IMG/VR virus record: IMGVR_UViG_3300014208_001444
Span: 1-48,057 of that record
Length of the DNA: 48,057 bases
From: a virus
Lineage: Duplodnaviria > Caudoviricetes
Direction: 5' to 3' (one strand)
The notes beneath the pieces were generated by a model. It saw only the letters and a list, made by a program, of their open reading frames with translations. It was not told the origin of the DNA and did no database searches. The position numbers and the translations under genes were made by a program. This document shows, one piece after another, positions 7,040 to 48,057 of this stretch. Numbering within the stretch: position 1 is the stretch's first letter; each line of letters begins with the position of its first letter.

Positions 7040-9379
7040 TTATAAAGTCAAATCTTGCCATTCGCTCCAGTCGTTCTGTTCGCATTTGCCCCAGTCGTAT
7101 ATTGTCTTGGAGTTAATCTTCCACGCGCTATTGCGTTGGATTACAATACCGCCGAAGAGCTTTTTCCCCTTGGCATTGTGCTCTTTAATATATTCGTGAA
7201 GTTTTTCAGCCTTGGCCTTGGTGTAAGTCTTCCCATCGCGATCTCCATGATCCTTGGCTTCGAAAATACCGATTTTGCCGTCTACGAAATGCACAATGTA
7301 GTCGGGGTAAAACGTGTTAGGCACATTCGCTGGGTAAAAATACTTGATGCCAAAATAATCGTGCTTATTCTCTCCGTTTTTCCACCACCAGACAATCTTG
7401 TCCGCATTTTCCTCTAGAAACTTCTCAAACTCGCGTTCAGGGCCTGACCGATCGACATTGAGATAGCATGGCTCATATACATACTTCTTGGCTTTTACCT
7501 GCTCATCGGTGTGCTGGTTATAGAAATCCTCTGGCTGAATGTCGAAATCGTCAAACTGTTCGCTGGCCTCAATGCGTTTCTGGACTTCCTTATCGCGGAC
7601 TCCCTTGAATGCGTCAATTGCCTCAGCAAGAATGGGGGCGAATACTTTGCGATTGCCGTTATGTAGAAATATTTTCTGAATCATCGTCATTTCTTCTGCC
7701 CAGTCTTTTGTGCCGAGATACTTTCTAAACCAAATATAAATTGATGTTTTAACTTTTGGCAGCGACCGCTTCACATTGCGGAACGAGCCGAGGTTGTCTT
7801 TGATAACCTGCTCGAACAACGCCTGCAGGTCGTTCCCTGCAATATTAAGACGAGCTTTTTGAGAGGAATCTATTTTTCCTTTCAGGTCGTCGAAGGTGTT
7901 CCCTTCAATTTTGGCATCGCTGATAATCTCTTGCTGATATTGTTTGAGATTCACGTCAACGCCTTTTTCCCTTAAAGTCTCCAAGTTCTTATCAAAGAAA
8001 TTCTCGTTTTTCAGCCCGAGCTTTTTGCACGCAATCTCTTCAAAGACATCATCAAAACTTGACGTGATATCCCCGTAATCAGCTCGTGCTTTGTAGTAGG
8101 AAGTAAGTGTGATTTGTTTGTAACTAGATTTGCGTACAGCTTTAAGATGCTTGATGATGTTCGGATTGTATTCTTCTTTCTTTACGATGATGCTCTGAAC
8201 GTTCGTGAAAATGAATCCCTTATTTAAGTCCTCGTGGGGATAGTGCTTCAGCTCTGGCATACGCAGAATGCGTCCGACGGTCTGAATTTCAAAGGTCTCG
8301 CTGTGAGATTCCCTGAATTTCACAAGGATATGTGCCCGAGGGCAATCCCAACCAGTGTCAATCGCTTGTTTGAATATCAGGAACTCTATTTCGTTATCCC
8401 GCTCTGCCACCCAGTCAAGCGTTTCTGACTTCCATTCCGAAAGCCATATAGCCAGCTTCCCGTTGCCATGTCCGTCCTTCCGTTCGACGATCCCTTTCTT
8501 CTCCAAGAACTGCTTAACCGCCTTAATCTTCTCATCGCCAGCCTCAGCAGTGGGAATCTGAACCAGCACAAGTGGATTGATTGGTGACTCTTCTCCTTCA
8601 AACATTTTCTTGAGTGCCAAGCGCTTTTTGTACGCGGCTTCAAGAATTACTTCCTGGGAGTCCATTTCGTTTGCACTGATATCGATGATTTTGTCATTGA
8701 TGATCAGTTCCTTTTTAATGACTCCGGCATCAATGACATCCTTGGGCTCAATAAAAACGAACCCTGCCATTCCACGGGCGATATCCCTCGGATCTGGCCT
8801 AATCTTTGGCGTAGCGCTCATTTCAAGGACAACGTCAGCACAAATCTCCTCGCGCAGTTCGTTTGTCCGTTCAGCTGTTGCGCCGATATGGCTTTCATCT
8901 ATAATCAGAATAATCTTGCGCTGTTCCCTGGTCTTTGCCAGGACATCTCGAAAGTTAAGTTTTTCCCCGTCTTTCATTAAGATGTTCTTCCAATCCTTAG
9001 TTTCGCGATCCTTGCTCCTGAGCTTTTCCCAGTTGACGACCACGACCTCATTTTTTATGATTCGCTCCCGAGACCCATTGAATTCCTCCTCAACTAGCGA
9101 TACGCGAGGAGAGCCAGTAAATATTTTCTCAAGGCTGTGCTTGCTCTGCAGGTGAAGGTCTCCCTTACCAACAGAAACCCAAACAAAACACATGTCAACT
9201 TCTGGCAATTCTTTAATTAAATTCTCAATGAACTTGGCAGTCATAACGGTTTTACCGCTGCCTGTAGGGGCTTGAAATATACAAACTTTTTTCTGGCCAT
9301 CTTTGCCGAGTAGCCCCTTAATGGTATCAACCAATCGCTCTACGGCGATTTCTTGGTATCGTTTCAAATTAATATCCAT
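7040..9379 (-). CDS. res: Type III restriction enzyme Res subunit (SF2 helicase plus PD-(D/E)xK nuclease)
   Basis: QAPTGSGKT, DESH, GWDCPR, QTVGRILR, FYPDYI...FEAK; follows mod. Confidence 0.88.
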   Translation of the reverse strand: MDINLKRYQEIAVERLVDTIKGLLGKDGQKKVCIFQAPTGSGKTVMTAKFIENLIKELPEVDMCFVWVSVGKGDLHLQSKHSLEKIFTGSPRVSLVEEEFNGSRERIIKNEVVVVNWEKLRSKDRETKDWKNILMKDGEKLNFRDVLAKTREQRKIILIIDESHIGATAERTNELREEICADVVLEMSATPKIRPDPRDIARGMAGFVFIEPKDVIDAGVIKKELIINDKIIDISANEMDSQEVILEAAYKKRLALKKMFEGEESPINPLVLVQIPTAEAGDEKIKAVKQFLEKKGIVERKDGHGNGKLAIWLSEWKSETLDWVAERDNEIEFLIFKQAIDTGWDCPRAHILVKFRESHSETFEIQTVGRILRMPELKHYPHEDLNKGFIFTNVQSIIVKKEEYNPNIIKHLKAVRKSSYKQITLTSYYKARADYGDITSSFDDVFEEIACKKLGLKNENFFDKNLETLREKGVDVNLKQYQQEIISDAKIEGNTFDDLKGKIDSSQKARLNIAGNDLQALFEQVIKDNLGSFRNVKRSLPKVKTSIYIWFRKYLGTKDWAEEMTMIQKIFLHNGNRKVFAPILAEAIDAFKGVRDKEVQKRIEASEQFDDFDIQPEDFYNQHTDEQVKAKKYVYEPCYLNVDRSGPEREFEKFLEENADKIVWWWKNGENKHDYFGIKYFYPANVPNTFYPDYIVHFVDGKIGIFEAKDHGDRDGKTYTKAKAEKLHEYIKEHNAKGKKLFGGIVIQRNSAWKINSKTIYDWGKCEQNDWSEWQDLTL

Positions 9380-29459: not shown

Positions 29460-29508
29460 ATTATGGCGCATCAAATCATCCTTGTCCATTAACAGTTCAA
29501 ACTGATTA
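29460..29508 (-). promoter_or_regulatory. Putative late promoter 2: CAGTT-TG-AACTG palindrome plus TGGACA-N17-CATAAT
   Basis: 26-bp exact repeat (29483..29508 = 37099..37124); sigma70-like spacing. Confidence 0.7.
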
Positions 29509-31914
29509 TTTACCGTCGGGCGCGGGCTGGATTGAGGCAGTCAGCGTCTTCTCTGAGTACAGGTCGCCGGGTTTGAGCTCGTAGTTAGAGACCAGCAACT
29601 CATACTTCGTCCGTGAGCCCAGCTGGTGCATACCGGTCCACAGCGTCTTCACGCGGTAGGTGTTAAACTCCTTAAACACCTTCTCTTTTTCAAGTTCGTA
29701 GCTCAACAGAAATTTCCCCTTGATTGTCCGCAGTGCGGGCAGGAGGCTCTCCTCCTGAAAGAACTTGGAGCCGTGCCGGCCCGCTTCCTTCGGCCAGTGC
29801 AGCGGATATGGCGGGTCGAGGTAGAACAAGGTGTCCTTCGAATCGTATTCCTTCACCGCGTCTTGCCAGTCCCATGAGTGCAGCAATACGCCCTTGAGGC
29901 GTTCCTGTATCTCCGGGAGGCGCTCGGCCAGGTGGATTTTCGCGCCCTCGCCGGAACTGCCGTGCCGCCTGACGCCTTCCCGTGCGTCCGCGCGGCCCCA
30001 GTACGTCGCCTTGTTGAGATAGGCGAACCGGTAGAACTTTTCACGCGCCGTTTCCGGCCGCCACTCGTAGAGCTTCTTGACCAGCGCGCGACTGATTATC
30101 CAGTCTCGCTTCTTAAGCCATTCCCAATCTGCGGTGGTCATGCCTTTTATAAACCGGTATGAGGCGATGATATCCGAATTGACGTCGTTTATGATCTCGA
30201 GGTCCGACCGCTTCTTGTGGAACAAGACCTGCGCCCCGCCGCAGAATGCCTCAACGTAGTTCTTGTGTTCCGGCAGGAAGCCGACCAGCTTCTTGCATAG
30301 GCGGAGTTTCCCGCCCGGGCTCTTGAACGCGCCCCGGATTTTCTCCAGCCTCGCCTCGTCTTCCAGGTGCGGCAGAAGTTCCGGCTCCTCCAATTCGCAG
30401 CCCTCCGGCGCGATTTCCAGCTCCTTGCCGATGTATAGGTCCACTTTCTGCAGCGGGAAATTGGAGACCAGTATCTCGGTCACCCATTCCTGGTTGCCGC
30501 CCGGCCCGCGCATCTGGTTGCGCCGCCGAACCTTGTAGACGTTATAGCCCTTGAAAGAATCGGCCTGCTCCACCGGGTATGACACTATCCATTTCGCTTT
30601 CAGCGACTTGATGGCGCGCTTAAACTCGGCGTCGTCGAAGCCGAAGTCGAATAGGTTGAACTTACCGGGATATGGCGGGTCCATGTAGAAGAACGTGTCC
30701 TGCCCGTCGTAGTCCTTGAGAATGTCGCGGTAGTCCTTGTTATGAACGGCGGCATTTTTAAGCCGGGCTTGCGCCCGCTCTATATTGGCCGGGAAGTCTA
30801 TCCGGACACCGGCGTTGGCGTGATTAAATGATCCGCCCCGCATTTTGCCGTAGGACGACCTGGTCAGGTAGAACGATTTATAAAACCGGTCGCGGTCGGT
30901 GGCGGGCTTCAGCTCTTTCAGACGCTCGTGCGTTTTCTGGTGGATCACCCAGTCGCGCTTGGCCAGCGCCGATCTGTCATCGGGAGAATGGTCGCGTATA
31001 AACTTATGCATGAACGCTATCTCGGCGTCGCGGTCGTTTAGCACTTCCTGCGGCGACGGGTCCTTGGCGTATAAAACCGCCGCGCCCCCGGCGAACGGCT
31101 CGACATAGGTTTTATGATACGGGATATAAGAAGCTATCTTGTGGGCCAGGAAGCGTTTCCCGCCGTAGGAGCCGAACGCCTGCCGTACGCCCTTCATATA
31201 CTCGGTGACGAAATGCCAGATGTCCGTTTCCCGGAGCAGACCGGCGGCGCGCGCGGTTTTGAGCGTCTCCCCGACCGTCATAACGGGCTTTGAGCCCGGC
31301 ACGCTCGTTATGTCCAGCCCGGCGGCCGACAGCGCGAAGTTGCCATCGTCGCGCCTGCACAGGATAAGGCTTTCGCACTCCACGTCCAGTATATCGCCCG
31401 GCTCGGGCCACGGGCCCGCACCGGCGGCATGGCCGATCTCCAGCCACAGCTTGCCGTTTAGGGATCGTATGGGCTCCGGCGCGGCTTTCATGTTCTGGTA
31501 ATCCAAACCGAAGTAAACGTCGCGCGTTTCCGGCAGGTAGCCGTCCTCCACGCGCGTTACGATGGCCCGCATGACGAACGAGCGCGGCTTATCCGCCGCC
31601 GCGAGCGGGTCATCGGGCGTGTCCGGATCGTTCATTTCCGTGTGCCTGCGGGTCTCCGCGTCCAGTGCGTCGTTGAGCGTATGGGCGAACCCGCGCAGCG
31701 CCATCTCGGCGCACACCTCGGCGTGCAGGTTTAGGAGATCCGGCAGTTGCCACTCCCTGCCTCCGGTCTGGTAGACCGGGTGGCCCGCGCGTTTCATGGC
31801 CCACGCACTGTGCAGGATGAAATCCATAGACAGCAGCTCCTGTGCCGCCAAATCGGCCGGAGCCGTGTTGAACAGCTCGCCGAACTCGGCTAAGTCGCTT
31901 TTTAGAACGTTCAT
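29506..31914 (-). CDS. Tandem two-domain Dam/D12-class DNA adenine methyltransferase with ~240-aa N-terminal extension
   Basis: Two sets of GGK...YVE.F.GG..V...ND...DPPY; ATGA overlap with the portal stop at 31911-31914. Confidence 0.88.
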   Translation of the reverse strand: MNVLKSDLAEFGELFNTAPADLAAQELLSMDFILHSAWAMKRAGHPVYQTGGREWQLPDLLNLHAEVCAEMALRGFAHTLNDALDAETRRHTEMNDPDTPDDPLAAADKPRSFVMRAIVTRVEDGYLPETRDVYFGLDYQNMKAAPEPIRSLNGKLWLEIGHAAGAGPWPEPGDILDVECESLILCRRDDGNFALSAAGLDITSVPGSKPVMTVGETLKTARAAGLLRETDIWHFVTEYMKGVRQAFGSYGGKRFLAHKIASYIPYHKTYVEPFAGGAAVLYAKDPSPQEVLNDRDAEIAFMHKFIRDHSPDDRSALAKRDWVIHQKTHERLKELKPATDRDRFYKSFYLTRSSYGKMRGGSFNHANAGVRIDFPANIERAQARLKNAAVHNKDYRDILKDYDGQDTFFYMDPPYPGKFNLFDFGFDDAEFKRAIKSLKAKWIVSYPVEQADSFKGYNVYKVRRRNQMRGPGGNQEWVTEILVSNFPLQKVDLYIGKELEIAPEGCELEEPELLPHLEDEARLEKIRGAFKSPGGKLRLCKKLVGFLPEHKNYVEAFCGGAQVLFHKKRSDLEIINDVNSDIIASYRFIKGMTTADWEWLKKRDWIISRALVKKLYEWRPETAREKFYRFAYLNKATYWGRADAREGVRRHGSSGEGAKIHLAERLPEIQERLKGVLLHSWDWQDAVKEYDSKDTLFYLDPPYPLHWPKEAGRHGSKFFQEESLLPALRTIKGKFLLSYELEKEKVFKEFNTYRVKTLWTGMHQLGSRTKYELLVSNYELKPGDLYSEKTLTASIQPAPDGK

Positions 31915-33992
31915 TTTTCCTCCAGTATTGTAATCCACGTGCATCTGCAGTTCGGATGCGCGGGCAAGACGTCTGACGCCTCGTCTATCTCCATGATTTT
32001 ACCGAGCTTGTCACCGGGCGCGGACTCGGCCGCGTCCACGCAGTCCGGACACGCGTCCGGAGACAGAAGCCACTGCACGCGCTCCACCGAGCCCTGCCGT
32101 AGCGCGTCCAGATTCCCTTCGTTGTATGCGCGGTTGGCTTCGGTGCGGGCGATAATCTCGGCCGCGTCGGCCCGACCGAGTTTGCGGACACCGCCGGCCC
32201 GGATCACGTTGCCGTCCGCGTCCAGAACGGGTTTCACGTTTATGGAAGCCATCGTGTCCAGTTGGCTATCCACCCGCGCCATCAGCTGCGGAATGGTTTC
32301 GCTGGCCGCGATTCCCTCTATGAGCGCCTGCCGCAGGCCAGCCTGTATGGCCTGGGAGACGTGCCCGGCCAAGGCGACGGAGCTGGCTTTGATCTTCTCC
32401 TGCAGTGCGCGGCTCAAATCGTCAACGTCCTCTATTCCGGCCCGCCGCGACGATAATTGCAGTCCTTTGCGCGCCGCCTCCAGAGAGAAGCGTTCCACGA
32501 TGCGGGCTATTTTGTTGCTATCCACTTCTTCCAGCAGGACCTCGATATCGTCCAGCTGCTTGGCGGCCTCCGGGGCGGCCGCCTGCCGGAACGCCAGGCC
32601 GCCGCAGACGCTGAACGAGGTAACGAACGGCAGTTTTACGGCTTTGACCTTTGGCAGGATCGCCTCGCGGTTCAAATGCGGCAGTTTTTCCGCGACAGCG
32701 GACTTTATATCGCGGAACAGCCGCGCAAGAGCGTCCGCGAACCTGTTCTCTATGGCGACGACCTCGCGGGTGGCGTTTACGATGGTTTCCTGCGGGCCGA
32801 GCGATTTCTGTATATCCGGCATGCGCGGCGCGACCAGTCTGCGGACCTCCTCGGGTGTGAACACGCCGTTCTGCAGGTAGATGCCGAATATCTCAGCCTG
32901 GTCTTTCTCGTCTATCGCGCGCTTGCTGAACTGGAACGACCAGTCCGTTATGCCGAAGCCCTGCCGGACTATATGCTTGTTGAGCTTCTCGGCCACGCGC
33001 ATCTGGAACGGCAGAATGGTTTCCTCGTAAAAGGTCTGGGTCTGGTGGTCGCCGGTGCCCGCGCCGATGTTCCCGGTTTCTATGATGGACACTTTGCTGG
33101 GCGGTACGCCGTAGACCGCCAGTATCTCGTTGCGGGTGAACTCGCGGAGCTGCAGGAACTCCATGTCCTTCTGGTTCACGCCGACTTGCTTAAACTCTAT
33201 GTCGCCCTCAAGCACGAGGTCCGCGTGCGCGAGTTCCGGGTTCTTGGCGCGGACGTTCAGGTATGCGCGGTTGCGCTCCACCTGCTCCGGGGTGGCGTCC
33301 TTCATGATGAACGCGCCGCGTATCTTCGCGCCGTTCACGAAAAAAGCGCGGTTATAGACCTGCGCGAATTTATCGACCGCGATCGGCAGAATAAGCGAAG
33401 CCAGCGGGGAAAGGCCGTACAGGGTAGCCCCCTTGGTTCCCAGTTTGAAGTGGATTACTTCTCTGGTCTCGAATCCGACCTTTCCCTCCTGGCTCCGCGA
33501 ATATCTCGGCGACTGGACGTAGCCCAGTATCGCGCCGTGCTCGTCCGCCCGCACGCTCATGGTGGTCGCGTCCAGGTTCCAGATCTCGCGCGGCTTGCCG
33601 TCCGCGCCGTAGACCACCTCCACAAACGCGTTGCCGAACACATAGACGTCGCGCGTTATGTCGTCCAGTATCTCCAGGAGCGTGTCGTTCGGATTGCAGT
33701 TGGCGAAGAAGTCCTGCAGAGCCTCGGCGCTCTTGGGGTCCGCGCCCGGCTTGGCCGGTGTCAGCGTGTAGCCGCGCGCCGTGACCGCCTTGCAGATGAC
33801 GCCGACCACCGCGCGCACCCATGACGTCTGCTCGTACATCCGGTTGAATATCTCGAAGTCGATGTCCGGCAGTATTCCCTCTTCCAGCGAAACGCCGGGG
33901 ACATGTGAGATGATCTGCTTTGCCGCTTTTTCTATCTCGTCGCGTATGACCGAGCCGAACAGCATTTTGACAACTGAAGACCCTATGCTCAT
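31911..33992 (-). CDS. HK97-family portal protein fused to a C-terminal MuF (Mu gpF/SPP1 gp7-like) domain
   Basis: GNAFVE, EVIHF...YGLSPL, KDMEF, YGVPP; then IARTE.NRAYN.G...C..C...PAHPNCRC. Confidence 0.9.
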   Translation of the reverse strand: MSIGSSVVKMLFGSVIRDEIEKAAKQIISHVPGVSLEEGILPDIDFEIFNRMYEQTSWVRAVVGVICKAVTARGYTLTPAKPGADPKSAEALQDFFANCNPNDTLLEILDDITRDVYVFGNAFVEVVYGADGKPREIWNLDATTMSVRADEHGAILGYVQSPRYSRSQEGKVGFETREVIHFKLGTKGATLYGLSPLASLILPIAVDKFAQVYNRAFFVNGAKIRGAFIMKDATPEQVERNRAYLNVRAKNPELAHADLVLEGDIEFKQVGVNQKDMEFLQLREFTRNEILAVYGVPPSKVSIIETGNIGAGTGDHQTQTFYEETILPFQMRVAEKLNKHIVRQGFGITDWSFQFSKRAIDEKDQAEIFGIYLQNGVFTPEEVRRLVAPRMPDIQKSLGPQETIVNATREVVAIENRFADALARLFRDIKSAVAEKLPHLNREAILPKVKAVKLPFVTSFSVCGGLAFRQAAAPEAAKQLDDIEVLLEEVDSNKIARIVERFSLEAARKGLQLSSRRAGIEDVDDLSRALQEKIKASSVALAGHVSQAIQAGLRQALIEGIAASETIPQLMARVDSQLDTMASINVKPVLDADGNVIRAGGVRKLGRADAAEIIARTEANRAYNEGNLDALRQGSVERVQWLLSPDACPDCVDAAESAPGDKLGKIMEIDEASDVLPAHPNCRCTWITILEEK

Positions 33993-34732
33993 AAAATTAC
34001 TCCTTGCTGAAAATCAGCGGGGTTTCGGAACCGCCCCGAACCCTTGAGATTGGGTATCTCACGGCTCTCTCTTGAGCCCTCCCCCGCGTCTATCCACCAT
34101 TTAAGGTCGCCGCTCTTGGGGTAGGCCGTCCGCCAGTTAAACGGCGACTCCCTGAGCAACGCCTTCCTGAGCTTGTGGGAACACATGAACTTGCAGTAGC
34201 GGAACTGGTAGCCCGATATCTTCATGAGCCCCATTTTCCGCGTAAATTTATTCTCCCGGGTACCGTAACGGGTTATCAGCAGCCGGGGATGGACCACCTC
34301 GCCTTCCGCCGTCCGGTAGAACTGGCTCTTGATGAACCCGCCGTAGAGCCAGCTCGCGGACTGGTACACATAACCCGGCTTGCCCCTGAGGCCGTCAGCC
34401 CAACTGAACAGAACTTTAACGTTCGGAAAGTCCTGCTGTATCCACTCCGCGCACATTTTAAGGAACCGGCTCTCGGTGTTGCGCGGCATCTCGTCCAGGA
34501 CGCAGAACCTGTTTAATTCCAGATAGTCATTCACGCCGAGAGACGGGAATAATCTGCGTATGGTGTGCATCGGCCTTGTGCCGAATCCCCATAACGCCAC
34601 GCCCACCAGCTTGCCGCCGTTGAACAGGCCGTAAGTCGCCTTCGTGATGGGCGGGCAGATGACGGCGTAATGATGGTCCGCCACGAACTGTTTGCCTGTC
34701 GCGTTGTCTACGGGCCTGACGCTTAAATCCAT
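33989..34732 (-). CDS. mom: Mom-family (GNAT-like) adenine hypermodification enzyme
   Basis: HHY, G.LVGVA.WG, LELNRF...PRNTESRFL, SWAD...G..G.VYQ.A.W.Y.G, YPK; AGGAG RBS before ATG 34732. Confidence 0.78.
   Translation of the reverse strand: MDLSVRPVDNATGKQFVADHHYAVICPPITKATYGLFNGGKLVGVALWGFGTRPMHTIRRLFPSLGVNDYLELNRFCVLDEMPRNTESRFLKMCAEWIQQDFPNVKVLFSWADGLRGKPGYVYQSASWLYGGFIKSQFYRTAEGEVVHPRLLITRYGTRENKFTRKMGLMKISGYQFRYCKFMCSHKLRKALLRESPFNWRTAYPKSGDLKWWIDAGEGSRESREIPNLKGSGRFRNPADFQQGVIL
34016..34087 (-). ncRNA. tRNA-Gly(CCC)-like cloverleaf embedded in the 3' end of mom
   Basis: GCGGGGG AG GGCTC-AAGAGA-GAGCC G TGAGA-TACCCAA-TCTCA AGGG TTCGG-GGCGGTT-CCGAA ACCCCGC T; near-canonical arm lengths, non-canonical D and T loops. 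Confidence 0.65.
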
Positions 34733-34742
34733 GTCATCGCTC

Positions 34743-36098
34743 CTATTCGTCCAAATCATCCGAGAACGATATCCTCGGTTCCATGCGCTGCGCCTGCACA
34801 CCCTGCAGCGCCAGCCAGAGCGCGTCCAGCATATCGTCCGAACTGTGCGGGAAGTGCAGCAGCTCTTCCTCCATCTCCGGCATGGTTTCGCGCGGCAGGG
34901 TGATGACGCCGTTCTCGAACAGCGGGGCGAGGCCGCGCAGGCGCGCGTGCTTGTCGCCCTGGGTGCTTATGGCCTTTATCGGCAGCATCTTGGTCTCAGG
35001 GTCCGTGCGCAGCGATTCGATGAATGCGCTCTGATACCCGTTCGACTCTATGCTAATAAGCCGAGGATGCCTGTGCCGGTGCAGACGCTTGACCGCCTTC
35101 AGCTGCTCATTGAACGGGATGCGGCCGCGATACGCCTCTATAATGAAAGAATCCCCGGCCTTGTTGACTCCGATTACGCAGTACGCGAACCGGGAGTTGG
35201 ACTCGCGTCGGCCAATGGCGAGGTCCACGCCCGCGAATACTGTAAGATCGTCTGGCAGTCTGTCATATCTGCCCGATTCCAGCCACGCCAGCTTGAAATC
35301 CGCACCCTCCTGGCCTGACGGGTCGTTCAGGTACAGGCAGTTATAGGAGGCCGCGCCCAACTGGGCCCGCTGAAGGGCCAGCTTCTCCGCGCTGAATTTC
35401 TCCGGGAACAGGATGTGCTTCTTCCCCGCCTCGTCATTCCATTCGGCGGCAAGGTTTATGACTTTCCAGTTGCCGTAGCCAGGGTCGTTCTTCAGGAAAC
35501 CCGCGATATCGTCCGTGTGCCAGCGGGTCATGACCACCACTATCTGCCCGTCGTTATCGAGCCTCGGCAGCAGGTCGCGTTGAAACCAGCGGATTACCTT
35601 CTGCCGCTGATGCGGAGTCATGGTGTTGCGGTTTGAGCACGGATCGTCTATGACTATAAGATTCGGATGCTGGCTGACCACCGTGCCCAGGACAGATGCC
35701 ACCGCTATGGACGGCTCCTTGCGGATCTCCGTGCGTGGAATCTGAACGCGTTCCTCCGTCCAGGTGTCAGCCGTCAGGTCCCAATGGCCGTATCGGTCGC
35801 GGAACCGCTCGTTCTGCGTCAGGTGGCCTTTGATCTCCCGCATGAAGCCTTTGGCGTTGTCTAAAATCTCGTTCACCAGCAGAATCCGCATGTTATGGTC
35901 CTCGGCCAGCCGGAACAGCGGGTAGGCTATTGTGCAGGCCGTGGTCTTCAAGTGTCCGACCGGAGCGAGCAGCAGGATAAACTGCTCCCGCAGCAGCGTG
36001 TCGAACCACGAAAGGTGCAGCTCGGTCAATTGGCTGTAGCCCAGGACGTCCTTGGCGAAGAAAAACAGCTCTTCCAGTCGCTGCGCGTGGGGCTTCAT
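34743..36098 (-). CDS. terL: Terminase large subunit
   Basis: APVGHLKT Walker A, LIVIDD Walker B, MTRWH..D, GVDLA, DDMLDA nuclease residues. Confidence 0.92.
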   Translation of the reverse strand: MKPHAQRLEELFFFAKDVLGYSQLTELHLSWFDTLLREQFILLLAPVGHLKTTACTIAYPLFRLAEDHNMRILLVNEILDNAKGFMREIKGHLTQNERFRDRYGHWDLTADTWTEERVQIPRTEIRKEPSIAVASVLGTVVSQHPNLIVIDDPCSNRNTMTPHQRQKVIRWFQRDLLPRLDNDGQIVVVMTRWHTDDIAGFLKNDPGYGNWKVINLAAEWNDEAGKKHILFPEKFSAEKLALQRAQLGAASYNCLYLNDPSGQEGADFKLAWLESGRYDRLPDDLTVFAGVDLAIGRRESNSRFAYCVIGVNKAGDSFIIEAYRGRIPFNEQLKAVKRLHRHRHPRLISIESNGYQSAFIESLRTDPETKMLPIKAISTQGDKHARLRGLAPLFENGVITLPRETMPEMEEELLHFPHSSDDMLDALWLALQGVQAQRMEPRISFSDDLDE

Positions 36099-45315: not shown

Positions 45316-45957
45316 TTATGCTCGTCTTAAATTCTTCGCCTTCCGAATTAACAGCGTCATCCTGCCCACTATGCGGAAGTCGGAATCCTCCGGAGTAACG
45401 ACAATCGGTTCCATATTGTCGTTCTCCGGGATTAGCAGATGATTCCCTTTGGAATCCCGGCCGTATTTCTTTAACGTCGCCCCGCCTTCGTAGATGGCGA
45501 CTACGATATCGCCAGGATCAGCAGTCGTCTGCTGTTTGGCTATCACGTAATCGCCCGAGTATATTCCGGCTTTCACCATGCTGTCACCTTTTACTGGAAA
45601 CATGCAAAACTCTCCTGCGCCGGTTAAAGACTTTGAAAGCCAGTGGACCTCATCCGTGTCGTCTGATAGTGTCTTTGGACTACCCAAGGGGACCGTTGCC
45701 AGGCACTCTGGAATCGGTGTAAGGGCCGCCCACTCCGGTCGCACCATCCCGGAGGTAGGCTTCAGACTGCGGAACTTCCGTTTCTCCTTTTTAAGGAAGC
45801 CTTTTTTTACCAAGGCGTCTATATGCCCGGACACTCCTTTGATGGAGGCGAAGCCGAAATGGGTTCCTATCTCCCTAAAAGTAGGCGCTGCCCCGGTTTT
45901 CTGGATGGTATGCGTGATAAAATCCAGCACCTGCTGCTGTTTTTTTGTCAGTTCCAT
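45316..45957 (-). CDS. LexA-like repressor (wHTH plus S24 peptidase)
   Basis: LTKKQ..VL.FI......G..PT.REI...FG, GDSM (Ser), TLKK (Lys). Confidence 0.9.
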   Translation of the reverse strand: MELTKKQQQVLDFITHTIQKTGAAPTFREIGTHFGFASIKGVSGHIDALVKKGFLKKEKRKFRSLKPTSGMVRPEWAALTPIPECLATVPLGSPKTLSDDTDEVHWLSKSLTGAGEFCMFPVKGDSMVKAGIYSGDYVIAKQQTTADPGDIVVAIYEGGATLKKYGRDSKGNHLLIPENDNMEPIVVTPEDSDFRIVGRMTLLIRKAKNLRRA

Positions 45958-46014
45958 TATCGCGTCTCCCGAGTGGTTTTGGAAAGGTTCTTGCTGCGAC
46001 TAGCCCCGAATCAA

Positions 46015-46044
46015 ATAATAGTAAACAAATGTTCACTATGTCAA
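46015..46044 (-). promoter_or_regulatory. Repressor promoter TTGACA-N18-TATTAT overlapped by a palindromic operator
   Basis: ATAGTAAACA-AA-TGTTCACTAT (46018..46039, arms match 9/10) containing GAAC-N4-GTTT, similar to the GAAC-N4-GTTC SOS box. Confidence 0.7.
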
Positions 46045-46197
46045 ATCTTACCTGCTTTTTCGCTGGAAAATAGATGACAAAGCGGCCTCCCTGAGCGGGC
46101 TCAAATTCACTTATTCGAAACTCTTTCTGCGAATAAACGGTAGGAAACTGCTGAACAGTATAACCATTCATTTCCACGCATGTCAAATTTTTCCTCG

Positions 46198-46229
46198 TTC
46201 GTCATTTTGGCCGCCTCAATCGTCTTTAT
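46198..46229 (+). promoter_or_regulatory. Bipartite motif copy 2 (putative phage-sigma promoter for the recombinase operon)
   Basis: TTCGTCATTTTGG-CCGCCTCAAT-CGTCTTTAT then GAGG RBS and ATG 46243. Confidence 0.7.
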
Positions 46230-46242
46230 TGGCGAGGCGATT

Positions 46243-46422
46243 ATGACCGATATCCGAATAAAAATCATAGAAGAAATGACTCCCGACGAGAGGTTTAGGC
46301 GCGTTGTGGAGATCCTGACGGCAGCGTCACTACGGCTTTTGAAAAAGCAGAAAGAGGCGCAGTTGCCTGATGCCGAGCGAATCAAAAAGCCCTTGATTAT
46401 CGACGAGAAAGAAGGTAAGTGA
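46243..46422 (+). CDS. Small protein upstream of the integrase (candidate recombination directionality factor)
   Basis: 59 aa; RBS; 6 nt before the recombinase start. Function inferred from position only. Confidence 0.5.
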   Translation: MTDIRIKIIEEMTPDERFRRVVEILTAASLRLLKKQKEAQLPDAERIKKPLIIDEKEGK

Positions 46423-46428
46423 TCATAT

Positions 46429-48057
46429 ATGGCTAACAGAAGAATAGACCCACCGCCGGAGCCGGAAAAGCCCAAGATCCTGTCCTGCGCCATTTACACG
46501 CGCAAATCCACGGACGAAAACCTTAACACGAACTTCAACTCGCTGGACTCCCAGAGGGAATACTGCCAGGCGTTCATAAAGAGCCGGGAGCCGGAGGGCT
46601 GGAGTGTGTGTCTTGAAGAATACAGCGACCCCGGTTTTACTGGCGGCAACATGGACCGCCCTGCGCTAAAGAGGCTTATCTCCGATGCCCGGCAGGGAAA
46701 GTTTCATGTGGTCGTCTGTTATAAATACGACCGGCTCAGCCGCAACACGCGGGATTTCCTTCATATCCTCGATACTTTTGAGAAGAACGGCGTGGCATTC
46801 GTATCCGTAACACAGCCGATAGACACCACCTCTTCGGTCGGCAGGCTGATGCGGTCCATCCTGATGGACTTTGCCCAGTTCGAGCGTGAGATGATAAGCG
46901 AACGGACGCGCGACAAGATGGCGGCTATGGCTAGGAAAGGGAAATGGGTCGGCGGCCATCCTATCATCGGCTACGAGTATGACAAGAAGAATAAGATTCT
47001 CCTGGTCAATCCAGATGAAGCGAAGCTTGTGCGTGAAATCTTCGACACCTACATCCGGACGACGTCCCTGCTGGCCACAGCAAAGTGGGCGACCGACAAG
47101 GGTTACACCATGAAAGGCTGGACTACGGAAAAAGGCCAGCAGCGCGGCGGCCGTACATTCAACAAGGCGAATCTGAGCTACCTCATAAACAATCCTGTTT
47201 TTACCGGCAAGATCGCTTATAAGCGGGAAATTTTTAAGGGAGAGCATCCGGCCATCATCCCGGACGATGTCTTCGAACAGGCGCACAGAATCCTCCGGGC
47301 CAACTGGAAAGGAAAATCGCATAAACATTTCGAGGACCGGAAGCACAACTATCTCCTGGGCGGCCTTGTCCGGTGCGCGTTCTGTAATTCTACGATGACG
47401 CCGACAACCAGCCGCCCCCGGAAGGGCGAGCGGTATTTCTACTATCACTGCATCTCGGTCAACAAGATGGACAGGACCGCTTGTGATGTCAGACGGGTCC
47501 CAGCCAAGGCGCTTGAGGGCTTTGTGCTGAAACGGCTGGAATTGCTGAGTAAGAGCAAGGATGTCGTGGAAACCGTCATTAAAGGCACGATTGACGACTC
47601 TGACCGGGTCCTGCCGGGCAAGCGCGACGAGAAAAGCCGCTTAAGCGCGGAATTAGGCCGGGTGGAGGGCGATGTCAGGAACCTTGTGAACGTTCTGGCG
47701 CAGGAGGGCGCGGATTCCCCCCGCTACAGGGTAATTATGGACAGGCTGGACGAATCACAGGCCAAAAAGGATGCGGTGCGGACCAGGCTGTTCGCCCTGG
47801 ACAAAGAAATCATGGAATACGAGGGCCGGGAGGTGGATGCGGAGATCGTCCGGCAAAATCTTGAGCATTTCCTGCGGCTTTTCGGGCAATGCAGCTATGA
47901 TGAGCAGAAAGAGCTCCTGAAGCTCCTTATACGCGACGTCTACTACGACGGCAAGAATTCGCGCGTTAAAATAGCACTGAGGCCGGTTTCCGGGGCTTGG
48001 GGCGATGTGGCCCACTTGGAAGGATTGTTCGATGACAGTCAAAAATGGGGTGGCTGA
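46429..48057 (+). CDS. Large serine recombinase (integrase)
   Basis: YTRKS catalytic Ser, DRLSR, FAQFERE.I.ER, recombinase domain, CAFC...YYHC...C zinc ribbon, coiled coil. Confidence 0.95.
   Translation: MANRRIDPPPEPEKPKILSCAIYTRKSTDENLNTNFNSLDSQREYCQAFIKSREPEGWSVCLEEYSDPGFTGGNMDRPALKRLISDARQGKFHVVVCYKYDRLSRNTRDFLHILDTFEKNGVAFVSVTQPIDTTSSVGRLMRSILMDFAQFEREMISERTRDKMAAMARKGKWVGGHPIIGYEYDKKNKILLVNPDEAKLVREIFDTYIRTTSLLATAKWATDKGYTMKGWTTEKGQQRGGRTFNKANLSYLINNPVFTGKIAYKREIFKGEHPAIIPDDVFEQAHRILRANWKGKSHKHFEDRKHNYLLGGLVRCAFCNSTMTPTTSRPRKGERYFYYHCISVNKMDRTACDVRRVPAKALEGFVLKRLELLSKSKDVVETVIKGTIDDSDRVLPGKRDEKSRLSAELGRVEGDVRNLVNVLAQEGADSPRYRVIMDRLDESQAKKDAVRTRLFALDKEIMEYEGREVDAEIVRQNLEHFLRLFGQCSYDEQKELLKLLIRDVYYDGKNSRVKIALRPVSGAWGDVAHLEGLFDDSQKWGG
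48046..48057 (-). other. Probable 3' end of a tRNA-His gene (candidate att site)
   Basis: Reverse complement TCAGCCACCCCA resembles the tRNA-His acceptor end (E. coli ...TAGCCACCCCA); only 12 nt are visible. Confidence 0.45.

Follow-up and report, generated by a model that had tools for sequence, protein, structure and literature searches.

The closest described counterpart of the locus studied here is the Mom protein of phage Mu, whose glycine donor is Gly-tRNA-Gly and which needs the terminal ribo-A of that tRNA (PMC13219725, Silva et al. 2026); a first-pass annotation of the present DNA had named this donor correctly. Mu Mom accepts all E. coli tRNA-Gly isoacceptors and rejects Gly-tRNA-Ala, so it reads the body of the tRNA (PMC13219725). 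EF-Tu is in large excess over aminoacyl-tRNA-dependent transferases, and how these compete with it is described as an open question (PMC4810233); late expression is the only mitigation of this competition offered in PMC13219725, and its main text contains no mention of a tRNA-like or cloverleaf RNA. The identity elements of bacterial tRNA-Gly are U73, G1-C72, C2-G71, C35 and C36 (PMC9976931). Staphylococcal donor tRNAs escape EF-Tu through the absence of G49.U65 and G51-C63 (PMC12256121). The allo-tRNAs and 8/4 tRNAs (Mukai et al., PMC5389517) are non-canonical tRNAs of bacteria and phages, some of which have a T-stem bulge and some of which are charged but unused in translation. A literature search, with subscription journals largely outside its scope and one supplement of PMC13219725 not covered, found no publication on a mom-linked tRNA.

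The window is the whole stretch of DNA that was analysed, the 48,057 nucleotides of a Caudoviricetes record (IMGVR_UViG_3300014208_001444). It contains a prophage late region in which mom sits between the terminase (terL) and portal genes (Table 1). The mom ORF is a profile match to PF25680 (E 6e-42, 144 bits against a cut-off of 27.1), and its product matches PHROG 1384 and the Mu Mom structure 8BV8 (E 6e-18). Mu Mom is also the top Foldseek match of the predicted structure (E 2.6e-16, TM 0.68/0.75), which has the same fold. The AlphaFold mean pLDDT is at least 90 in every block of residues 1-210 and 75, 58, 49 and 49 in the tail; the model is thus of a GNAT/Mom core folded to about residue 215, followed by a low-confidence tail which is encoded by the RNA element described below. 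Six of the nine Mu residues checked are retained (H58, Y59, R111, S124, D149 and Y159): the Mu-essential R111, S124 and D149 correspond to R75, S88 and D113, and H21, Y22 and Y123 are also present. R151, W48 and W181 are not retained; the Mu-essential R151 aligns with L115, and an Arg which is invariant in the Mom alignment (R116) lies one residue further on. This Mom is predicted to be a glycine-to-DNA transferase with intact catalytic residues, three of the nine checked being different.

Table 1. Features of the mom locus, with positions in the 48,057-nt window
Feature	Position	Strand	Remarks
tRNA-Gly-like RNA, G1 to discriminator U73, 72 nt	34016..34087	-	CCA not encoded in this copy
Acceptor stem, 5' strand	34081..34087	-	G1, C2, G3 identity bases; G7 mismatched with A66
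D arm	34063..34078	-	5-bp stem including C14-G21; loop A18 (34070), G19 (34069)
Anticodon arm	34045..34061	-	anticodon CCC 34054-34052; A33 replaces U33; U32-A38 can pair
T arm	34024..34040	-	U49-A65, U50-A64, C51-G63; loop G54 G55 C56 G57 G58 U59 U60
Acceptor stem, 3' strand	34017..34023	-	A66 at 34023, C72 at 34017
mom gene	33989..34732	-	247 aa from ATG at 34732; ORF finder start is GTG at 34801
Terminase large subunit	34743..36098	-	upstream neighbour, same strand
Portal protein fused to Mu gpF-like domain	31911..33992	-	downstream neighbour; start overlaps mom stop (ATGA)
Shine-Dalgarno-like AAGGAG of portal gene	34000..34005	-	starts 11 nt after U73; from sequence

The closest named proteins to this Mom are from Elusimicrobia genomes. 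The host genome has one mom copy, three ordinary tRNA-Gly genes, a gene for the GlyRS alpha subunit and two PF01743 (PolyA_pol/CCA-type) nucleotidyltransferase genes; only 13 of the 45 host tRNAs called by ARAGORN have CCA at the 3' end. A scan for promoters and terminators found no consensus site beside the RNA element, and hence no sign of a separate promoter. Between the portal and prohead protease genes (29506-31944, minus strand) lies a gene whose 812-aa product has two adenine methyltransferase domains of the Dam type, so the head operon holds a second DNA-modifying gene besides mom. At the right edge of the window (45316-48057) genes for a LexA-like repressor and a large serine recombinase adjoin a tRNA-His (G000:C10:63611), which is likely to be the prophage attachment site.

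The in-frame codons 216-239 of mom form a cloverleaf on the same strand. Its acceptor stem has six Watson-Crick pairs and the G7.A66 mismatch, and it has a D arm (GGCUC/GAGCC), an anticodon arm (UGAGA/UCUCA with the loop UACCCAA), a 4-nt variable loop, a T arm (UUCGG/CCGAA with the loop GGCGGUU) and a discriminator U. Its position, every stem, the anticodon, the loop sizes and the discriminator agree with the first-pass annotation, as do its place within the 3' end of a Mom gene and the full set of bacterial GlyRS identity elements (G1-C72, C2-G71, G3-C70, C35, C36 and U73). The minimum free energy fold of the element is the cloverleaf (-32.5 kcal/mol, z -2.75), and none of 200 shuffles is equally stable. 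A finder blind to the anticodon returned it as the sole match scoring at least 17.5 on both strands of the window. ARAGORN called no tRNA in the window, and Rfam gave no tRNA match there at E up to 10, three matches at E about 1-9 being due to chance. With a lowered threshold ARAGORN calls near-identical relatives (e.g. L001, L008) tRNA-Gly(CCC).

Canonical bacterial tRNA-Gly (Rfam tRNA) has the same arm lengths and spacing, the same identity bases and G19-C56; the element differs from it in A8, C14-G21, A18, A33, G54, G55, G58, C51-G63 and G7.A66. Five of these bases (A8, A18, A33, G54, G55) stand in place of the elongator bases U8, G18, U33 and T54-Psi55, whereas U8, U33 and TTC are each present in all 32 parsed host tRNAs. 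The earlier statement that the D-loop GG, U33 and the T-loop TTC are missing is right as to A33, A18 for G18 and G55 for U55, and wrong as to G19 and C56, which are both present. With 55 nt of flank on each side the acceptor stem of this copy is predicted to be open (pair probability about 0); its predicted closure is 0.58 after removal of the 5' leader and 0.99 for the element alone, and among 66 relatives it is predicted closed in flank context in only 39. An acceptor stem that is open in the mRNA could make RNase P slower, or could act as a switch. A small hairpin predicted over the acceptor 3' end (34006-34018, minus strand) abuts the portal Shine-Dalgarno sequence and competes with the acceptor stem.

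Close relatives of this Mom were gathered both by whole protein and by a core-only alignment without the tail. The cloverleaf is found in 142 of 149 such loci (at least 49% identity; duplicates included, two of them being this locus), 141 by the strict finder and L134 by a relaxed one. Of the seven loci without a match, three have 0-2 nt of flank, L017/L147 have a gene truncated at residue 171, and L027/L107, which are one contig, combine a close Mom core with a 110-nt flank that contains no RNA. The covariation alignment holds 67 distinct copies of equal length, L091 (other frame and length) and L134 being left out. The bases pair in 95.4% of its 1474 cells, and compensatory changes on both strands are seen for 12 of the 22 pairs, with all four helices represented; none of 500 shuffles reaches any of these measures, slid structures pair in 31-49%, and RNAalifold gives the same fold. 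Positions 18 and 55 are A18.G55 in 58 copies and G18.U55 in nine, with no exception; positions 54 and 58 are G54.G58 in 60 and U54.A58 in six, and G19-C56 is present in all 67. On a quick tree of the protein cores (66 rows) the 18/55 switch makes seven changes, at least two of which are forced by well-supported branches. Since D- and T-loop bases are exchanged in pairs, the RNA probably retains its L shape, and since positions 18 and 55 change together across homologues, the elbow is re-coded rather than lost.

There is also a difference between the bases read by GlyRS and those used in decoding. G1-C72, C2-G71 and C36 are present in all 67 close copies, C35 in 66 and U73 in 65, and G7.A66 is found in 64 and C51-G63 in 67; U8 and G51-C63 are found in none, G49.U65 in one, a TTC loop in four and U33 in 29. 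CCA is encoded in 40 of the 67, so its absence, put forward earlier, is true of this copy but is not a general trait. Looking at the codons, Pro is encoded in frame by CCC in all 64 cases where it falls at the anticodon and by CCA in 40 of 41 after U73, against a core background of 218 CCC and 78 CCA among 731 Pro codons; these tallies come from related copies and are counts, not probabilities. Among 120 proteins the residue at the anticodon codon is P in 112, T in three and A in two (three unparsed), and the anticodon variants among close copies are ACC, TCC and one CTC. As Pro frees the third codon base and a Gly anticodon frees the first, the fixation of CCC indicates that the RNA, not the protein, fixes these letters. 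Mean column conservation is 0.86 inside the element, 0.64 in the 15 nt before it and 0.40 beyond CCA. The element is always in frame 0 in this clade, and the peptide motif AGEGSRES...FRHPAP is conserved in nearly all of the 120 homologues. The first-pass annotation had named the lack of such a fold at related mom genes as refuting its idea; a cloverleaf that is conserved, covaries and carries NCC and U73 is in fact present there. These alignments show selection at the RNA level on a cloverleaf which travels with mom genes. One copy (L094:2640-2714) has the anticodon CTC and no CCA and is probably decayed, and in L054 the RNA is retained though the mom frame has an upstream stop.

In distant Mom proteins the tail resembled a translation of this RNA in other frames. 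The strict finder misses this clade because of a T-stem bulge and short D arms, and a widened finder and a second RNA model (R2) were used; R2 also scores ordinary tRNAs at 28-36 bits, and only matches above 40 bits were counted and then parsed. In 80 viral loci of this clade, all 36 matches of the anticodon-blind finder that score at least 17 have xCC in the loop. A looser finder applied to loci L150-L339 gave 49 matches with NCC and 10 without in the 400 nt that follow the core, against five with NCC and 46 without elsewhere. R2 finds the RNA in 67 of the 80 loci. Every one of these copies has G1-C72/C2-G71, U73 and an anticodon loop with CC; the 3' strand of the T stem is bulged in 60, CCA is encoded in 53, and 11 are at most 71 nt long. 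They lie in the tail (31), after the stop (27), over the stop (3) or convergently on the opposite strand (6), and occur in reading frames other than the frame 0 of the close clade. The proposal that RNA and enzyme share a transcript is borne out here, but does not extend to the six convergent copies. In the third Mom clade the RNA is absent from 77 of 80 loci, and the three loci that have it all have A73, which is the discriminator of the archaeal/eukaryal Gly type (PMC9976931). Proteins labelled 'archaeon' share 78-80% identity with the Mom proteins encoded at L042 and L043, a hint that the discriminator base may follow the GlyRS type of the host. A73 copies are L042:807-881, L043:2613-2687, L091:644-717, L260:2233-2307, L261:2203-2277 and L334:1424-1498. 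Tandem or double copies at one mom locus are seen at L221:2286-2423, L651:2156-2296 and L198 (745-821 and 2198-2274), and a related Gly-type RNA lies about 700 nt after the mom stop in distant loci L150 (3358-3430) and L151/L152/L154 (3378-3454). A ParB-N domain gene is just upstream of mom or the RNA in L651 (891-1502), L655 (1373-1894) and L565 (582-1547), with terminase genes next in L651.

The RNA was also searched for without reference to Mom, using a pattern of the bulged T arm and acceptor 3' end only, with no anticodon; this gave 120 viral stretches, about 1300 being estimated for IMG/VR. A Mom profile match is present on the same strand in 112 of the 120. In the long-flank subset Mom is found in 75 of 80, 73 of these matches being at E 1e-15 or better, and weaker Mom matches may lean on tail residues contained in the search profiles. 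The five long-flank misses comprise two with less than 90 nt upstream, one convergent on a GNAT gene, one by glycosyltransferase and terminase genes and one degenerate. By our own tally the RNA is upstream of the Mom core in 29 of the 120. The 103 distinct copies that could be parsed include 99 with NCC (TCC 58, ACC 37, CCC 3, GCC 1) and 42 with a D region of at most 14 nt. Here too the elbow bases go together, D-loop GG with U55 and AG with G55 (42/8/8/56, Fisher p 5e-15, relatedness ignored). A pattern of the close clade with the anticodon left blank gave 71 of 71 matches in Mom tails, all CCC, a result that is partly circular as the pattern was drawn from that clade.

In GTDB genomes 44 of 80 long-flank matches close a cloverleaf, 30 beside Mom and 14 not; the latter are one chance match, three with short upstream flanks and about ten with full flanks and no mom within 1.5 kb. 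NCC is present in 65 of 69 GTDB cloverleaves overall. Neighbours of the mom-less copies have no common partner by Pfam or NCBIfam. Across 61 related genomes, the five strong RNA matches correspond to the five mom copies over the Pfam cut-off. The family is carried by prophages of many phyla. On these counts the RNA family is real and widespread. The chromosomal-looking, bulged Gly-type RNAs with no mom within 1.5 kb are those of L539, L601, L546, L562, L583, L553, L572 and L590 (about 1450-1578 in each). That of L590 lies in a glycosyltransferase cluster; the ORF downstream of it has no Pfam or NCBIfam match and may resemble the FemAB-type transferases.

The staphylococcal non-proteinogenic tRNA-Gly (NP1, NP2 and NEW, used by FemXAB; PMC12256121, PMC4574755, PMC3239215) likewise keeps its Gly identity and has lost G49.U65 and G51-C63, and the predicted EF-Tu affinity is -9.8 for the phage element versus -9.5 for a staphylococcal donor (PMC3239215). 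In both cases the client is an aminoacyl-tRNA-dependent GNAT-type transferase. The phage RNA, in contrast, is phage-encoded, tied to its client gene and often inside the client's frame, and its target is DNA, not peptidoglycan. G19-C56 is kept in it and 18.55 is re-coded; positions 18 and 19 of the staphylococcal RNAs are U18/C18 and U19, and these RNAs have a UCC anticodon in a chromosomal tRNA operon, against CCC in a prophage late operon for the present element. Only the phage family of the two has the 7.66 mismatch or T-stem bulge, D-armless forms and TCC/ACC/CCC anticodons. The RNA probably works like the staphylococcal non-proteinogenic tRNA-Gly, but it lies outside that group and is no ordinary tRNA. 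Membership of the allo-tRNAs or 8/4 tRNAs was rejected: these have an 8/4 or 9/3 branch and are of Ser, Ala, His, Cys or Sec type, whereas in the phage family the branch is 7/5, the variable loop is short, the identity is that of Gly and the RNA is linked to mom.

We propose, with a probability of roughly 0.7, that the 72-nt element is a processed, GlyRS-charged, EF-Tu-avoiding private glycine donor for Mom. After its transcription as part of the late terL-mom-portal message, host RNase P and a 3' nuclease would release it, and a host enzyme would add its CCA (many relatives encode CCA). Maturation by RNase P and RNase Z is textbook knowledge. The heterotetramer-type GlyRS of the host would charge the RNA through G1-C72, C2-G71, C35, C36 and U73. 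C51-G63 and G7.A66, or the T-stem bulge in distant relatives, would weaken EF-Tu binding, and the loss of U8, U33 and sometimes the D arm would make it unfit for decoding, so that the charged RNA stays free. Mom could then move the glycyl group to adenine N6 of phage DNA, which by the chemistry of Mu Mom would rearrange to 6-NcmdA and protect against restriction. In the in-frame copies excision would remove the mom stop codon, one transcript yielding either Mom or the carrier, and would leave a stop-less mom message and a portal message with its Shine-Dalgarno sequence intact.

A T-stem model of EF-Tu binding (PMC3239215) gives -9.8 kcal/mol for the element, a mean of -9.77 for 66 scorable close copies and -11.0 for each host tRNA-Gly, a modest difference of 1.2 kcal/mol in a model that does not extend to mismatches and bulges. 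The acceptor/T helix, which in a canonical elongator tRNA runs unbroken for 12 bp, is distorted in two ways, by G7.A66 in the close clade and by the T-stem bulge in the distant one, which are found in one and none of the 32 parsed host tRNAs, respectively; we infer that both block EF-Tu. The proposed avoidance of the ribosome is supported at the sequence level, by the loss of G49.U65 and G51-C63, the weaker predicted EF-Tu binding and the distorted helix. Mu Mom uses host tRNA-Gly, and neither a search of the final 327 nt of the Mu record nor the RNA model revealed a cloverleaf. As the RNA is missing from Mu and most of the third clade it is an accessory and no universal part of Mom, and as Mu works with host tRNA-Gly the carrier is likely to be a supply booster rather than an obligate part.

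The same data were set against other readings. The RNA could be a cis-acting tRNA mimic in the mRNA, either a processing signal at which RNase P/Z separates mom from portal or a site whose binding by GlyRS or Mom adjusts mom expression, and never become a free donor. It does lie inside or right beside mom, upstream of it in 29 of the 120 RNA-first loci, and in this window it ends 11 nt before the portal Shine-Dalgarno sequence, with alternative folds competing with the acceptor stem in context. However, its position varies freely: copies occur in three frames of the tail, downstream of the stop codon, ahead of the start codon and, in 6 of 67 cases, on the other strand. There are tandem copies as well (L221, L651), CCA and U73 are retained, and a signal acting purely in the mRNA would have no need of the two distinct distortions of the EF-Tu face; we regard this reading as unlikely. 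It is quite unlikely that the RNA is a phage tRNA-Gly for translation, or a decoy which replaces host tRNA-Gly or shields it from anti-phage nucleases or acetyltransferases, with only an indirect gain for Mom. That ARAGORN calls the relatives L033, L055 and L086 tRNA-Gly, that GenBank does the same for the B2_17 copy and that about ten copies have no nearby mom would fit such a role, but a translating tRNA is hard to reconcile with U8 in 0/67, U33 in 29/67 and TTC in 4/67, with a D region of at most 14 nt in 42/103 and the anticodon ACC in 37/103 RNA-first copies, with the lack of a T-stem bulge in 32 host tRNAs, or with the link to mom in 112/120.

The cloverleaf might also be a by-product, in which a conserved protein tail or a tRNA left over from integration folds by chance. 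The constant frame 0 of the close clade and the peptide motif in nearly all of the 120 homologues are what a protein tail would give, but compensatory and tertiary covariation, fixed synonymous positions, copies in other frames and in non-coding DNA, and the low confidence of the predicted tail speak against it, and the likely attachment tRNA is the tRNA-His at the right edge of the window. We consider a chance origin very improbable and have rejected both forms of it, as they are contradicted by the covariation and the non-coding copies.

If the glycine-carrier reading is correct, the family offers a direct answer to the competition with EF-Tu for DNA hypermodification, namely a carrier of its own which GlyRS accepts and EF-Tu likely rejects. 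The family mostly escapes standard tRNA finders. Among its features are non-mitochondrial tRNA-like RNAs that lack a D arm, an elbow with re-coded contacts, and a complete tRNA that overlaps a frame coding for protein. Its members provide naturally occurring cases in which EF-Tu antideterminants can be tested, and might become tools for labelling DNA in a tRNA-dependent way. A wider proposal, which we hold tentatively and would rather doubt than endorse, is that many Mom enzymes form two-part systems with a minimal tRNA of their own, as small as a 68-mer with no D arm, which host GlyRS recharges in a cycle apart from translation, that excision of the RNA from the enzyme's frame couples their levels, that the discriminator follows the host synthetase, and that the same design serves other chromosomal aminoacyl-transferases. 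With such two-part protein-RNA systems, nature would already have an orthogonal aminoacyl carrier by which amino acids can be written onto DNA.

Two cultured phages make the carrier hypothesis testable. In Psychrobacter phage vB_PmaS_Y8A (Y8A; OQ059336) the stop of a mom gene is closely followed by a tandem pair of unannotated copies with no D arm, at about 7786-7853 and 7858-7926, and Salinibacter phage B2_17 has a bulged copy, annotated in GenBank as tRNA-Gly, 33 nt after a Mom-family gene. Starting from Mom, the RNA was found at one of 14 cultured-phage loci. With flanks of 1.2-2.5 kb, or to the end of the record, the RNA model found no RNA at the mom genes of Mu, Melnitz, Y8A (its second), Edwardsiella, Riggi, SWEP2, pAEv1818, Maureen, Porphyromonas, Darwin, DSL-LC03, P12002L and S-SSM7. 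The protein of Arthrobacter phage SWEP2 (ON528933) which is labelled 'endolysin' (L653:1168-2034) belongs to the Mom family (PF25680, E 8e-56).
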